From Acidobacteriota bacterium (lineage in GTDB: Bacteria; Acidobacteriota; Thermoanaerobaculia; Multivoradales; UBA5704): DNA of 21,531 bases. The stretch covers positions 1-21,531 of the forward strand of contig JBDTZG010000077.1 of the NCBI GenBank assembly GCA_040005235.1, given 5' to 3'. Below are positions 1-21,531 of the stretch, piece after piece. The notes beneath the pieces were generated by a model. The model was given only the letters and a program-made list of their open reading frames with translations, searched no databases and was not told where the DNA came from. Made by a program: the position numbers and the translations under genes. The stretch's first letter is position 1. Each line of letters opens with the position of its first letter.

Positions 1-2710
1 TCTTCGCACGCCAGGACCACCGTCTCACGGATTCCCGGGTGGCAACTGAGCGCCGCCTCGATCTCGCCCAGCTCGACGCGGTAACCGCGGACGTTCACCT
101 GCTCGTCGGCGCGGCCGAGGAACTCCACCGTGCCGTCCAGAAGATAGCGGCCGAGATCGCCGGTGCGGTAGATCCGATCCGCCGGATTGCCGGATAACAA
201 GCGGGTCGCCGGGTTGACGATGAAGCGGTCAGCGGTCGCCTCCGGATCGCCGAGATAGCCTTGCGCGAGATAAGGGGTGCGCACGCAGATCTCGCCGCGC
301 TCGCCACGGCCAACGAGTTGTCCGGCGCGCGAAAGCACCAGGATCTGCACGCCGTCGATGCCGCGGCCGAGCGGCACCCGGCCCTCGCCCGCATCCGCCG
401 CGACCTCGTTCCAGGCCATCGCCTGCGGCGTCTCGGTGGCGCCATAGAAATTGACGGCAGTGGCTTCCGGAGCGAGCCGGGCGAGGCGCGCCACATCGCC
501 GCCGGAAAGCGCGCCGCCGCCGTAAAAAGCCCACCGAAGGAGAGAGAGAACCGGGGCGACCTCGGGCTCGCGTTCGGGAGTCGCCGAGGCGAGGAGCTGC
601 CCCAGCGCGGGGGTCAGATGGATCGCCGTCACCTTTTGGCGCGCGAGCCAGGCGAGCAGCAGGCCCGGCTCGCGCATTTCGTCGGCGCCCGGTACGCAGA
701 GCGTGGCGCCCAGCCAGAGAGGGGTGAAGACGTCGCGCAGCAGGGGATCATGAGAGAGCCCGGCGAGCAGGCTGAAGCGGTCCTCTCTCCCGAGATGGAA
801 GGTCTCCGTGTGCCACGTGAGGAAGTGCGACACCGGCCGGTGCGTACCGAGGATTCCCTTCGGCTTTCCGGTCGAACCGGAGGTGAACGCCACATAGGCG
901 AGATCGTCCGGCCCGTTCACGACATCCGGAGCCGGGTCGCCAACGGCCGGGTTGGATTCCGGGGCGATGCGGCAACGCAGCGAGAGACCGGCCACCTCGG
1001 ATTCGAGTGCGGCCGGCAGGACCGCGACTTCGATCAGCGCGCGCGGCCGGGCCTGGTTGAGACAGTCGGCCAGGCGCGTCGGCGGATAGGCGGCGTCGAG
1101 AATCAAAAACGCGGCGCCCGCACGCCAGGTTCCGAGCATCGCCTCGACTAGGAAGCCGGAACGCCGGGCGTAAATCGCGACGAGATCTCCCGCGCCGATT
1201 CCGTCATTGCGGAGCCGCCCCGCGATCCGGCGGCTCGCCGCATCCAACTCGCCGTAGGTCCAGTTCCGCTCGTCCGAGAGGATCGCCGGGCGCTCGGGCG
1301 CGAGCTTCGCGTGCTCGGCGAAACGCGCCACCACCGACCCGGGCCAGCCGGCAGGGAGAGGCAGAGTTGGGTCGGGCAGGATCGCGCGGTCCGCTTCGAG
1401 CCGGAGCGAGAAGTCGTCGATCGACCGCTCGGGAGCGGCGACCGCCTGGTCGAGCAGCGATTCCCATTGCGCCGAAAGGATCTCGATCCGCGCGGGGTCG
1501 AACAGGTCGGCGTTGTAGACCCACTCGAAGCCCAGGCCGCCGTCATGCTCGGCGGCGTAGAGCGTCAAATCGAACTTGGCGCCGAGGGCCGGAGCGGGTA
1601 CGGCTTCGAGAGCGAGCCCGGGCAGCTCGACCTTTACGTTCGGCAGGTTGAGCAGGTTGAAGAAGACCTGGAACAGCGGCGTGCGCCCTAGGTCGCGAGA
1701 GGGGCGCAGGTCGTCGAGGATCTTTTCGAACGGCACGTCCTGGTGCCCATAGGCGCCGAGCGCCGTCTCACGCACGCGCGCCACCAGATCCGCGAAGCTC
1801 GGCGAGCCCGACAGGTCCGTGCGCAGAGCGAGGGTATTGAGAAACAGCCCGATCAGTTTCTCGGTCTCGATCCGGCCGCGGCCGGCGATCGGCGTGCCGA
1901 CCACCAGATCCTCCTGGCCGGAGTGGCGGGAGAGCAGCAAATCGAACGCGGCGAGCAGGGTCATGAACAGCGTGGCGCCCTGCCGGCGCGACAGGGCGCG
2001 TAGCGCGGACGACAGATTCGGAGTGAGCCGGACCGAGCGTTGGCCGACGCGGAACGTCTGTACCGTCGGGCGCGGACGGTCGGTCGGCAGGTCGAGCCGC
2101 GGCGGTGCGCCGGTCAACCGCCCGCGCCAGTAGCCGAGCTGGCGATCGAGGACGGGACCGTGGAGCCACGCGCGCTGCCAGACACCGTAGTCGGCGTACT
2201 GGATCGCGGGCTCGGGCAGCGGCGACGCCTCGCCGCGGGCGAACGCACCGTAGAGGGTGGCCAGCTCTTCGAGCAGGAGACCTTGCGACCAGCCGTCCGA
2301 GATCACGTGATGCACGGTGAGTAGGCCCGTGTGCTCTTGGTCGCCGAGCCGCAGAAGCGTCGCGCGCAGCAGCGGACCGCGGGCGAGATCGAACGGTCGC
2401 GCGACCTCTTCGGCGATCCGCCGGGAGGCTTCGCGGCGGCGCGTCTCCGCCGGCAGCGCCGCGAGATCGACGACCGGGCAGACGAGCAAGACGGCCGGCG
2501 CGATCACTTGGACCGGCTCCGCGCCGGAAAGGCGGAAAGTGGTGCGCAGGGTCTCGTGGCGGCGCACCACCTCGGAGAGTGCGCGGTCGAACAGTGGGCG
2601 CTGGAGGCGCCCGGCAAGCCGCACGGTGGCCGACAGGTTGAACGTCGCGCTGTCGGGCTCCAGCTGGTCTAGGAACCAAATCCGCTCCTGGGCGAACGAG
2701 AGCGGAATCC
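1..2710 (-). other. Module 9 (partial): C9-A9, A9 of Lys2/aminoadipate-reductase-like type, probable dicarboxylic amino acid substrate
   Basis: HHVISDG at 2292-2312. A9 (1 to about 1340) has FTSGSTGKPKGILGTH, GLSHDPLLRDVFTPLWLGA (HDPLLRD at 732-752), IHLTPALGQLL, NFYGATETPQAM and GEICVRTPYLAQGY; partial code DPRHFGFQA. Confidence 0.82.
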
Positions 2711-20700: not shown

Positions 20701-21531
20701 AGCTCTCCGTCGGGCCGGTATCTCACCCGGTCGCCGGTCCGGTAGAGCCGCGCGCCCGGCTCGCCGCTCCAACCGCTCCAAGAATCGGGTACGAACGAGG
20801 CGGCGGTGAGGTCCGGCCGGTTGAGATAGCCGCGCGCGAGCCCCGCGCCGCCCAAATAAAGCTCGGCCGGAACGCCTAGCGGCGTCCGCTCTCCCCCACG
20901 GACGACGTAGGCGCGGCTGCCGGGGAGCGGCCGGCCGATCGCCGGGGCTCTCGTGTCGCCGAACGGAATGCGCGCCTCGGTCGAGTAGGTGGTGTCCTCG
21001 GACGGACCGTATAGGTTCATCACCCGGGCGATCCCCGCGGCGTGGAGCGATTCGGCGAGGGAGAGCGGCAGCGGCTCTCCGGCCAGATTGACGGTCCGGA
21101 CCGACGGCGGCACGGCGCCCAGATGGAGCAGCTCGGTCATCGCCGAGGGGACCGTGTTGATCATCGTGACCTCGTCGTGCCCCGGGGTTCCCGGCGCGAG
21201 CGCCAGCTCGAGCGCGTTGCCGGCGAGGATCACCGCGCCGCCGTAGGCCAGCGGCGCGAACAGCTCGAACACCGAGAGATCGAAGCAGATCGAAGTGGCG
21301 GCGAGCACCCCCGCCAGCTCTTCCCTCGAATAAGCCGCGCCGGCCCACTCGACCATCGCCACCGCGCTCGAATGGCGGATCGCCACCCCTTTCGGCCGCC
21401 CGGTCGAGCCCGAGGTGTAGATGACGTAGGCGAGGTTGTCGGGCGTCGCCGGGCAGAGCGGTCCGGTAGTGGTTTCGTTTGCCCCGCAGCGACTGGCTGC
21501 TGCCGAAGGCGCCCGAAGGAGCGAGGAGGCA
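1..21531 (-). CDS. Giant multimodular NRPS, partial at both ends (at least 7,176 aa; 8 C, 5 A, 8 T and 1 sulfotransferase domain in window)
   Basis: The same minus-strand frame holds at both ends: A3 motif LAYVIYTSGSTGRPKG near 21390-21435 and A8 motif GRADEQVNVRGYRVELGEIE at about 57-116. Every HHxxxDG and GGxS motif checked between them is in that frame. No minus-strand ORF in the supplied track ends in this frame, consistent with no internal stop codon. Confidence 0.97.
2780..5885 (-). other. Module 8: C8-A8-T8, A8 Ala-like (code DLFNSALTYK)
   Basis: HHVVADG at 5469-5489. A8 spans about 3050-4475 with FDLSIFE, VNTVPS, VSLAGE, NLYGPSEDTTYST and ANGKIDRRAL (Lys 3072-3074). T8 FFHLGGHSLL (Ser 2892-2894). 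Confidence 0.9.
5941..5976. repeat. Degenerate 18-bp tandem repeat encoding VESVEP/VESLEP in the ST-C8 linker
   Basis: ggttctaacgattcaacc followed by ggttcgaccgattcgact, 14 of 18 identical. Confidence 0.6.
5980..6830 (-). other. Embedded PAPS-dependent sulfotransferase domain (CurM/olefin-synthase-like)
   Basis: 5'-PSB loop FVLSPPRSGSTLLRVMLAGHP (SPPRSGST at 6783-6806), PPELELL, LLVDKTPSY (DKTPSY at 6495-6512), 3'-PB motif RHPYGMIRS (6399-6425), RFEDLVRDP and ICAFLGL. In frame with T7 and C8. Confidence 0.93.
6990..10130 (-). other. Module 7: C7-A7-T7, A7 predicted L-Ser
   Basis: HHIVADG at 9723-9743. A7 spans about 7260-8745 with KGAMNSHRAIVNRLLWMQ, QKTPVSFDVSVWE, TLHFVPSML, VIASGE and NLYGPTEAAVDVT, giving code DVWHISLVDK (Ser type). 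T7 FFALGGSSISGA (Ser 7101-7103). Confidence 0.92.
10200..11815 (-). other. Module 6: C6-T6, no adenylation domain
   Basis: LPLSFAQERLWFL; HHIAADG at 11397-11417; linker LLAAEELLQLVVPPAGRPERRLLRARG; DDFFHLGGHSLL (Ser 10311-10313). Confidence 0.93.
11880..13510 (-). other. Module 5: C5-T5, no adenylation domain
   Basis: LPLSFAQERLWFL; HHIAADG at 13089-13109; linker LLAAEELLQLGVPQGERPERRLLRARG; DDFFRLGGHSLL (Ser 11994-11996). Confidence 0.93.
13570..16660 (-). other. Module 4: C4-A4-T4, A4 Ala-like (code DLFNNAATYK)
   Basis: HHAIFDG at 16233-16253. A4 spans about 13830-15270 with LKAGGAYVPID, FTSGSTGRPKG, FDLSVFE, VNLAGE, NAYGPSEDTTYST and PNGKLNRKAL. T4 FFALGGHSLL (Ser 13683-13685). Confidence 0.9.
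16730..18370 (-). other. Module 3: C3-T3, no adenylation domain
   Basis: LSFAQERLFFL; HHVAADG at 17955-17975; short linker; TRFFDLGGHSLL (Ser 16836-16838). Confidence 0.93.
18450..20050 (-). other. Module 2: C2-T2, no adenylation domain
   Basis: LSFGQERLW; HHIVSDG at 19626-19646; C end ...AELPLSTPARRQALL; a short linker leads directly to DDFFALGGHSLL (Ser 18552-18554). No A motifs in between. Confidence 0.93.
20130..20330 (-). other. Peptidyl carrier protein T1
   Basis: DDFFALGGHSLLAARL; phosphopantetheine (Ppant) Ser at 20232-20234. Confidence 0.93.
20380..21531 (-). other. Adenylation domain A1 (N-terminus outside window), predicted L-Ala
   Basis: Motifs YTSGSTGRPKG, FDLSVFE, INTVPS, VNLAGE, NLYGPSEDTTYST, YRTGD and PNGKLDRRAL (Lys at 20406-20408). 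Manually extracted specificity code DLFNNALTYK, the Ala code known from McyA-A2-type domains. Confidence 0.88.

Follow-up and report, generated by a model that had tools for sequence, protein, structure and literature searches.

The window analyzed here, a stretch of 21,531 nt that constitutes a complete contig (JBDTZG010000077.1, below C84) of an Acidobacteriota genome bin (GCA_040005235.1, below G000), is occupied over its whole length by the internal part of a single non-ribosomal peptide synthetase (NRPS) gene. In our reading, to which we assign a probability of roughly 0.6, this is the first gene of a hybrid assembly line of NRPS and polyketide synthase (PKS) modules, in which four modules that have lost their adenylation (A) domains would be charged with alanine by their neighbors, and in which a sulfotransferase (ST) domain embedded in the protein would O-sulfonate a serine on the preceding carrier domain, T7. 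The bin comprises 6.2 Mb in 140 contigs with 66% G+C, and the window has 69–73% G+C. Going by the names that the sources attach to homologues with 60–66% identity, the host is an uncultured bacterium of soil or roots, probably an acidobacterium of the class Thermoanaerobaculia.

Domain organization of the window gene

The minus-strand frame 3..21530 (7176 codons) spans the whole window without a stop codon and is open at both ends. When its translation was compared with Pfam in two overlapping halves, the only matches were Condensation, AMP-binding, AMP-binding_C, PP-binding, one Sulfotransfer_3 and a weak Sulfotransfer_1. A motif scan, together with hidden Markov models (HMMs) built from the window's own domains, gave the order A(partial)-T-C-T-C-T-C-A-T-C-T-C-T-C-A-T-ST-C-A-T-C-A(partial), where C and T are condensation and carrier domains, that is, 8 C, 8 T, 5 A and 1 ST domain. 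The HHxxxDG motif was found in all eight C domains and the GGxS serine in all eight T domains. A thioesterase (TE) family is absent from the Pfam matches of the frame, and the window contains no epimerization (E) domain because every Condensation-type stretch occupies a C position. A preliminary description of this DNA had proposed one uninterrupted frame with four A-less modules, an internal ST after a Ser module, an A domain of the DPRH type and the lack of E and TE domains in the window, and all of these points were borne out. The features of the window are as follows.

3..21530, minus strand: reading frame of 7176 codons, internal part of the first gene of the hybrid NRPS-PKS line
21462..21531, no strand assigned: right part of a palindromic interspersed repeat of about 87 nt, in frame inside A1 between motifs A2 and A3
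20367..21512, minus strand: A1, N-terminally cut by the contig end, Ala type
20109..20339, minus strand: T1, carrier with GGHSL
18429..20063, minus strand: A-less module 2 (C1, 18720-20063; T2, 18429-18659)
16713..18380, minus strand: A-less module 3 (C2, 17031-18380; T3, 16713-16943)
13560..16670, minus strand: module 4, C3-A2-T4, code DLFNNAATYK
11871..13517, minus strand: A-less module 5 (C4, 12198-13517; T5, 11871-12101)
10188..11825, minus strand: A-less module 6, tandem duplicate of module 5 (C5, 10515-11825; T6, 10188-10418)
7251..10148, minus strand: module 7, C6-A3, Ser type
6978..7208, minus strand: T7, specialized carrier with GGSSI before the ST
5961..6920, minus strand: ST, sulfotransferase domain of the CurM/OLS type (Sulfotransfer_3), predicted to use 3'-phosphoadenosine-5'-phosphosulfate (PAPS)
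2769..5897, minus strand: module 8, C7-A4-T8, code DLFNSALTYK
3..2720, minus strand: module 9, C8 and A5 (C-terminally cut), continued on contig C132 of the same genome (A10 region, T, stop)

The ten-residue specificity codes of the A domains were read at positions anchored on the core motifs, with what we take to be the GrsA numbering. They are compared here with DLFNNALTYK and DVWHxSLVDK, which we take to be an Ala code and a Ser code, respectively.

A1: DLFNNALTYK, Ala type
A2: DLFNNAATYK, Ala type with one change
A3: DVWHISLVDK, Ser type
A4: DLFNSALTYK, Ala type with one change
A5: DPRHFGFQA(K), substrate class not assigned

Modules lacking adenylation domains

All four A-less modules are C-T units with intact HHxxxDG and GGHSL motifs. 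The gaps between their C and T envelopes measure only 21–33 residues, so that no domain is hidden in them. At these joints, sequence typical of the C-A linker passes straight into sequence of the A-T linker, which matches what a clean excision of the A domain would leave behind.

The history of these modules was traced in related genomes, of which 41 were searched and 36 gave a match, the matches differing in kind. In G002, which belongs to the same genus, a query comprising T, ST and C was matched with 79% identity over 999 of its 1000 residues, inside a frame of 8591 codons. According to the HMMs of the window's own domains, this frame has the order C-A-T-C-T-C-T-C-A-T-C-T-C-T-C-T-C-A(Ser)-T-ST-C-A-T-C-A(DPRH)-T; the A model gives an additional short match where C and T of module 3 meet, overlapping T3, which we read as similarity to the A-T linker. 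The domains of the window pair one to one with those of G002 at 74–94% identity, compared with about 35–70% for non-partner domains and about 80–90% among the duplicated C-T units. G002 carries one extra copy of the C-T unit, and C4 and C5 of the window are 79% identical; thus, the C-T unit itself has been duplicated. A further piece with 78% identity, cut by the end of its contig, was found in G007.

The orthologue in G013, a genome of the same family and a different genus (72% identity, inside a frame of 9202 codons), is colinear. It starts with a loading domain resembling fatty-acyl-AMP ligases and a carrier (AMP-binding, DIP2-like C-terminal domain, PP-binding), and these are followed by eight C-A-T modules with the codes Ala-type (DLFNCALTYK), DAW-MAHVVK, Ala, Ala, Ala, Ala, Ser (then the ST) and Ala. 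Around the ST, the orthology with the window is clear (84% identity for T7, 63% for C6 and 66% for C7); for the Ala modules further upstream, the identities are 52–58% and the one-to-one pairing is less clear. Because five of the six modules that precede the Ser module in this colinear relative have Ala codes, the A-less modules are, judging by these codes, former C-A-T modules, mostly for Ala, that lost their A domain. Directly downstream of the G013 cluster (contig C3 of that genome, about 1428300–1430630) lies an IS21-like pair that consists of an integrase core with a Mu-transposase C-terminal domain and an IstB ATPase.

The ratio of nonsynonymous to synonymous substitution rates (dN/dS) between G000 and G002 is 0.15–0.29 for the A-less C and T domains, with a value of 0.65 for T6 that comes from 77 codons only, and 0.12–0.32 for the other domains. 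The A-less modules are under purifying selection and are probably still in use. Ala A domains flank each A-less pair, and most likely these domains charge the A-less carriers with Ala, in cis or between modules. One A domain would serve about three carriers, and each A-T-C-T-C-T block, served by its resident Ala A domain, would contribute to a run of about six Ala before the Ser. The preliminary description had called the line a non-colinear NRPS and had left open the residues at the A-less positions; the non-colinear organization stands, and the identity of these residues is now narrowed to most likely Ala by the codes of G013 and the lack of a stand-alone A gene in the flanks examined. A scan of flank genes in G002, in G013 and on C132 for a stand-alone A or A-T gene, as the preliminary description had advised for the flanks, did not find one. 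Another NRPS of G000, on contig C117, has more C-T units without A domains (reverse-strand frames 8455-22263 and 32407-37287); hence, A-domain loss is not confined to the window gene.

The sulfotransferase domain and its carrier

The ST domain matched Pfam family PF13469 (Sulfotransfer_3) with E = 3.3e-28, above the curated cut-off, and it matched the solved structures of the CurM ST (4gbm, E = 4e-59) and the OLS ST (4gox, E = 1.5e-55). By homology, it is a CurM-type PAPS sulfotransferase domain. The window ST keeps the PRSGST loop, and the Glu of the PPE motif is present in 121 of 122 aligned NRPS ST domains; in the 2012 work of McCarthy et al. on the CurM ST structure, PRSGST is said to be the PAPS loop and the PPE Glu the proposed catalytic base. 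Within the gene, the ST has the lowest dN/dS (0.12 between G000 and G002). A check for PAPS supply genes, suggested by the preliminary description, turned up an APS (adenosine-5'-phosphosulfate) kinase gene in the G000 genome. We conclude that the ST probably sulfonates a hydroxyl of the residue on its carrier, and we infer that this is the Ser hydroxyl. The domain would use PAPS to O-sulfonate the side-chain hydroxyl of Ser, or of peptidyl-Ser, on T7 before the transfer by C7.

The carrier itself is distinctive. T7 shares 33–46% identity with the other T domains of the window, G002 and G013, compared with 84–86% with its orthologues. A database search with the ST domain found at least 1322 longer proteins with E <= 1e-20 among the 8000 candidates scored, so that an ST embedded in an NRPS is not unique to the window; precedents with sulfated glyceric acid exist also in cyanobacteria. 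The 120 homologues listed are NRPS fragments, mostly named Thermoanaerobaculia by their sources, the other names being Pyrinomonadaceae, Acidobacteriota, Chloroflexi and Ktedonobacteraceae. They contain 123 ST domains, which are followed by a C domain in 58 cases, by a tail of at least 200 aa in 53, by the protein end in 10, and by a T and an ST domain in one case each. Many of the proteins with such a tail have a Pfam thioesterase family. A tail of TE size, giving the form T-ST-TE, follows about half of the NRPS ST domains in the 120 listed homologues; this form, the CurM layout applied to an amino acid, occurs after Ser, Thr and other modules. By analogy, T-ST-TE proteins could release C-terminal enamides; literature searches found no published study of such release.

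The code upstream of the ST is complete in 21 of the 58 T-ST-C units (it is cut in the other 37): nine codes are Ser-like, six are Thr-like, three are DASTxAAVCK, presumably a Tyr-type code, and three are DLWHLTLVEK. The carriers preceding ST domains bear GG[NDS]SI in place of GGHSL and form one clade, with a single change among the 181 T domains of the tree, 108 of which precede an ST (shuffle minimum 47); thus, T-ST behaves as an inherited cassette. The shuffle controls used for this and the following trees ignore relatedness and overstate significance. The C domains that follow ST domains are not one clade (20 changes with 43 of 174 C domains, shuffle minimum 33). The ST tree mixes domains followed by C with those followed by TE (15 changes for 111 ST domains, at least 31 in the shuffles), and it groups the classes of the upstream residue only in part (17 changes for 58, at least 26 in the shuffles). 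Two further T-ST-C units are present in G000 (C55:31-2616 and C118:169366-172335), of which that on C118 follows a DASTVAAVCK module; the cassette is not restricted to Ser.

The complete gene and the assembly line beyond the window

The last 55 nt of the window contig, read on the minus strand, are identical to the first 55 nt of the plus strand of C132, and this 55-mer occurs nowhere else in the genome. C132 extends the frame by 201 codons, with the end of A5, a T domain and the stop codon. According to Pfam, the next gene on C132 encodes KS-AT-ACP-C-A(Gly)-T-KS-AT-KR-ACP (KS, ketosynthase; AT, acyltransferase; ACP, acyl carrier protein; KR, ketoreductase), and the last NRPS gene encodes C-A-T-TE, with a methyltransferase (MT) inserted in an A domain of Ala code. 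By way of the 55-nt overlap, KS/AT modules therefore stand in the same line as the NRPS modules. In G002, the PKS arrangement is alike, with stretches at the expected PKS positions that the C, A and T models leave unmatched. The preliminary description had predicted an Ala-rich peptide. C132 adds two PKS modules, a Gly module, a methylating Ala module and a TE, so that the predicted product is a hybrid peptide-polyketide and not an Ala-rich peptide alone.

The start of the gene lies on the minus strand of contig C65, which encodes a starter-type C domain and the first part of A1; C65 2427->427 shares 85.8% identity with residues 1-669 of the G002 orthologue. The interval 8426->427 of this strand holds the start of the window gene together with three upstream genes, which encode an outer-membrane protein (OMP) beta-barrel, a 692-residue protein without a Pfam family and a DUF5916 protein. 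The same three genes precede the orthologue in G002 (73–81% identity), and this synteny is also found in G013. The N-terminal C domain of the G002 protein shares only 35–41% identity with the C domains of the window; we read the N-terminal C domain of the gene as a starter C domain, with a probable lipid start. The window thus comprises the central 7176 codons of a first gene of about 8000 codons, that is, modules 1 to 9 of one protein. The line would start with starter C-A(Ala)-T, C-T, C-T, C-A(Ala-like)-T, C-T, C-T, continue with C-A(Ser)-T-ST, C-A(Ala-like)-T, C-A(DPRH)-T, and end with the second protein, KS-AT-ACP-C-A(Gly)-T-KS-AT-KR-ACP, the gene of an exporter of the major facilitator superfamily (MFS), and C-A(Ala, MT)-T-TE.

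The MFS transporter gene, at about 11560–12860 of C132 and in another frame, separates the PKS-NRPS gene from the last NRPS gene. An apparent 450-residue N-terminus of the third gene on C132, which has no Pfam or NCBIfam match, was considered and rejected. An Atlas search pointed to MFS transporters, and the separate MFS gene explains the region: the long open reading frame 11642-18391 crosses the MFS gene in the wrong frame, and the true last gene starts near 12.9 kb. A MacB/FtsX-type permease is encoded on the opposite strand after the last NRPS gene. Beyond a repeat element (see below), C65 runs into unrelated sequence; the assembly graph therefore branches at the repeat. Contig C105 was rejected as the upstream contig because its partial A domain and A1 share only 73% identity where their domain coordinates overlap. 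G000 as a whole is exceptionally rich in NRPS genes, with frames of up to 7500 codons and more than 20 modules on C132 alone; among the contigs with NRPS genes are C132, C118, C91, C34, C117, C65, C79 and C86.

Alternative explanations

We consider it very improbable that the unusual domain order is an assembly artefact, that is, a chimeric or collapsed contig of a repeat-rich metagenome bin, a concern that the preliminary description had itself raised. The 140-contig bin is indeed full of similar NRPS repeats, a repeat lies at the window end, and the Logan contigs of both runs that hold the sequence are short and broken at repeats. Nevertheless, the window is not an assembly chimera, because the independently assembled G002 has the same domain order, with one-to-one orthology of the domains; the 78% identical piece in G007 and the frame that stays open across 21.5 kb argue in the same direction. 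Logan contigs from two runs of one study tile positions 1532-21531, with 30 of 30 depth bins covered and no differing letters listed; the bin may itself derive from these runs, so that they give no independent support. Three runs of this study are listed, two of which hold nearly all window words; no listed piece spans the tiled stretch, and no RNA run holding window words is among those listed. Most Logan joints have sides of 20–28 letters and resemble cross-matches between NRPS repeats. If the order is real, the A-less modules might be relics in decay, which the line skips or uses just to hand the chain on, in which case the peptide would be shorter (Ala-Ala-Ser-Ala-X...). Loss of the A domain is what one expects of a degenerating module, and module skipping is documented in other assembly lines (10.1101/560987), but we regard this as improbable: the dN/dS values of the A-less domains equal those of complete modules, all HHxxxDG and GGHSL motifs are intact, the layout is conserved in two species, and the C-T unit was duplicated after the A domain had been lost. 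Somewhat less improbable, although still unlikely, is loading by a free-standing A or A-T enzyme from elsewhere, possibly with a residue other than Ala. Trans-acting A domains that serve A-less modules are reported for WS9326A (PMC7539972), and in G000, contigs C36 and C39 carry A-T frames that are not part of large NRPS genes, and MbtH-like genes lie on C73 and C101. The scanned flanks lack such a gene, the pre-Ser modules of the colinear G013 mostly have Ala codes, and the presence of two A-T-C-T-C-T blocks would suit a single resident A domain in each.

What becomes of the sulfate is less clear-cut. We lean slightly toward its retention in the product, since the C domains that follow ST domains are ordinary and do not form a dedicated clade. 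According to a published remark, sulfated products are the probable outcome for ST homologues that lack a TE, and NRPSs with internal ST domains are reported to retain the sulfate on glyceric acid (PMC2533009, PMC6520454). Alternatively, the sulfate might be a leaving group, so that Ser on T7 would be converted to dehydroalanine, or by intramolecular attack to an aziridine or oxazoline, before or during the reaction at C7, and the final product would be free of sulfate. This is a possibility to be taken seriously, but we consider it rather unlikely. The nearest solved relatives of the domain are the 'activating' STs of CurM and OLS, and subclades of C-followed STs also occur as T-ST-TE, the layout of CurM. 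Of the complete upstream codes, 15 of 21 are Ser- or Thr-like and place a hydroxyl beta to the thioester, as in CurM substrates; by general chemistry, a beta-sulfate ester beside a thioester would be prone to eliminate. On the other hand, three of the 21 units follow DASTxAAVCK, presumably a Tyr-type module, and a phenol cannot eliminate. The C-domain tree shows no dedicated clade downstream of ST domains, the domain HMMs and Pfam detect no lyase-like domain adjoining the ST in the window, and in Oci and DysB, the precedents among NRPSs, the sulfate is reported to stay in place (PMC2533009, PMC6520454). A combined version, in which T-ST is an in-line leaving-group cassette that leads to a dehydroamino acid if a C domain follows and to a C-terminal enamide if a TE follows, together with an economized poly-Ala segment, is equally tentative.

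Several observations weigh against the reading preferred here, that is, Ala charging by neighboring A domains and O-sulfonation of Ser in a hybrid line. The nearest solved homologues of the ST eliminate the sulfate and the C- and TE-followed STs interleave on the ST tree; hence, retention is not established. The position of His62 in CurM (PPELH), which is His in both CurM and OLS in our alignments, is Glu in the window and in 117 of 122 NRPS ST domains. Module 2 of G013 has a non-Ala code, so that ancestry does not prove Ala at every A-less position, and the assignment of an A domain to a carrier is not computable. A1 contains an in-frame repeat insertion of about 29 residues. Finally, the evidence for the contig joins consists of a single 55-nt overlap plus orthology and synteny, and it includes no spanning read.

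The DPRH adenylation domain

The code of A5 shares only DPRH with published codes. For DPRHLALLAK, 2-aminoadipate was predicted in the zeamine cluster (PMC3547906), and another study (PMC12283262) assigns this code to an 'AMA' moiety, DPRHVSLLAK to Asn, and DILQLGMIWK to Gly. A PDB search with the complete A5 orthologue of G002 gave LgrA as the top match, but this is uninformative, because the score merely adds up two ordinary matches between A domains (214 + 242 bits). Among the NCBIfam models, the generic adenylation model matched the DPRH A domain, and the Lys2 model stayed below threshold (380 bits versus a cut-off of 1030). The acidic residue that the preliminary description had placed at this position is therefore unsupported, because its only basis is a predictor label on the different code DPRHLALLAK.

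A palindromic repeat at the window end

The contig ends at the edge of the window because a repeat element lies there. In this element of about 87 nt, a core of about 50 nt is conserved and the inverted arms vary; window positions 21462-21531 are its right part. The G000 genome contains 14 copies of at least 40 nt, including that of the window; the others are located on C132 (about 15476-15562), C65 (about 392-480), C117 (about 13128), C118 (about 155935) and at nine other contig sites. The C132 copy folds at -54 kcal/mol (z -3.45), and no Rfam match was obtained for the element. In the gene shared by C65 and C84, the repeat keeps the reading frame and separates the A-domain motifs A2 and A3, with the same translation on both contigs; in the last NRPS gene, the C132 copy also keeps the frame and separates the AMP-binding match from the AMP-binding_C match. 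The corresponding site in G002 is empty, yet it keeps a sequence like the right arm, which hints that the repeat arms derive from the target sequence. A Logan joint, 21424->21483 (side 42, in both runs), skips 58 nt inside the element and may represent a variant without part of it or a hairpin artefact. Palindromic elements of Rickettsia are likewise palindromic repeats inserted in frame into genes. The window repeat resembles them in being in frame in A-domain coding sequence at two or more sites, but it comes from an unrelated organism and, as said, has no match in Rfam.

Relation to known systems and significance

Each unusual feature of the line has a known relative, namely, the CurM-type ST, the NRPS-embedded ST acting on glyceric acid, and the A-less modules with nonlinear supply. 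The window ST is homologous to those of the ACP-ST-TE tridomains of CurM and OLS, belongs to the same Sulfotransfer_3 family, directly follows a carrier, and would act on a Ser hydroxyl beta to the thioester, as in beta-hydroxyacyl-ACP. In contrast to CurM and OLS, it is located inside an NRPS after an amino-acid module, is followed by C7-A4-T8 instead of a TE, which lies three proteins further on (on C132), and has Glu at the His62 position. In domain layout, it is also similar to OciA (cyanopeptolin of Planktothrix) and DysB (dysinosin), in which an ST lies in an NRPS polypeptide beside a carrier. In these systems, according to PMC2533009 and PMC6520454, the substrate is glyceric acid from a starting loading domain of the GA/FkbH type, whereas the window has an internal Ser module: no such loading domain is among the Pfam matches of the window, and an A domain with a Ser-type code precedes T7-ST. 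A-less C-T modules supplied by the A domain of another module are known from the thalassospiramide synthetase Ttm (10.1101/560987), and A-less C-T modules supplied by trans A enzymes are reported for that of WS9326A (PMC7539972). Unlike these, the window line has four A-less modules in two tandem pairs in one protein, and a colinear relative that shows the probable, mostly Ala ancestral state, with later duplication of the C-T unit.

The combination of an ST cassette on an internal Ser, two tandem A-less pairs of mostly Ala ancestry and a PKS-containing tail did not turn up in our literature searches. In agreement with the preliminary description, which recognized no characterized cluster with this architecture, literature searches found none with the domain order of the window (MIBiG was not queried and antiSMASH not run), and they found no study of the chemistry of a T-ST cassette on amino acids.

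The interest of the locus lies mainly in this T-ST cassette, which is widespread and unstudied: the carrier-fused, CurM-type ST is found again and again, in far more than a thousand NRPS proteins of Acidobacteriota, in most cases following a Ser or Thr module, and this phylum is common in soils and has many assembly lines that are still unexplored. The locus gives a clean and compact test case that can be reconstructed, with one Ser module, a defined neighborhood and orthologues in two further genomes. If the cassette were to create a leaving group, it would represent an undescribed route to dehydroamino acids that is used by hundreds of Acidobacteriota assembly lines, coupled here to a poly-Ala segment with three carriers supplied by each A domain. 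The colinear relative and the two A-less relatives form a natural before-and-after pair for the loss of A domains. They bear on the question of how one A domain may serve several carriers and how assembly lines may shrink without losing residues, which would be useful for NRPS engineering.

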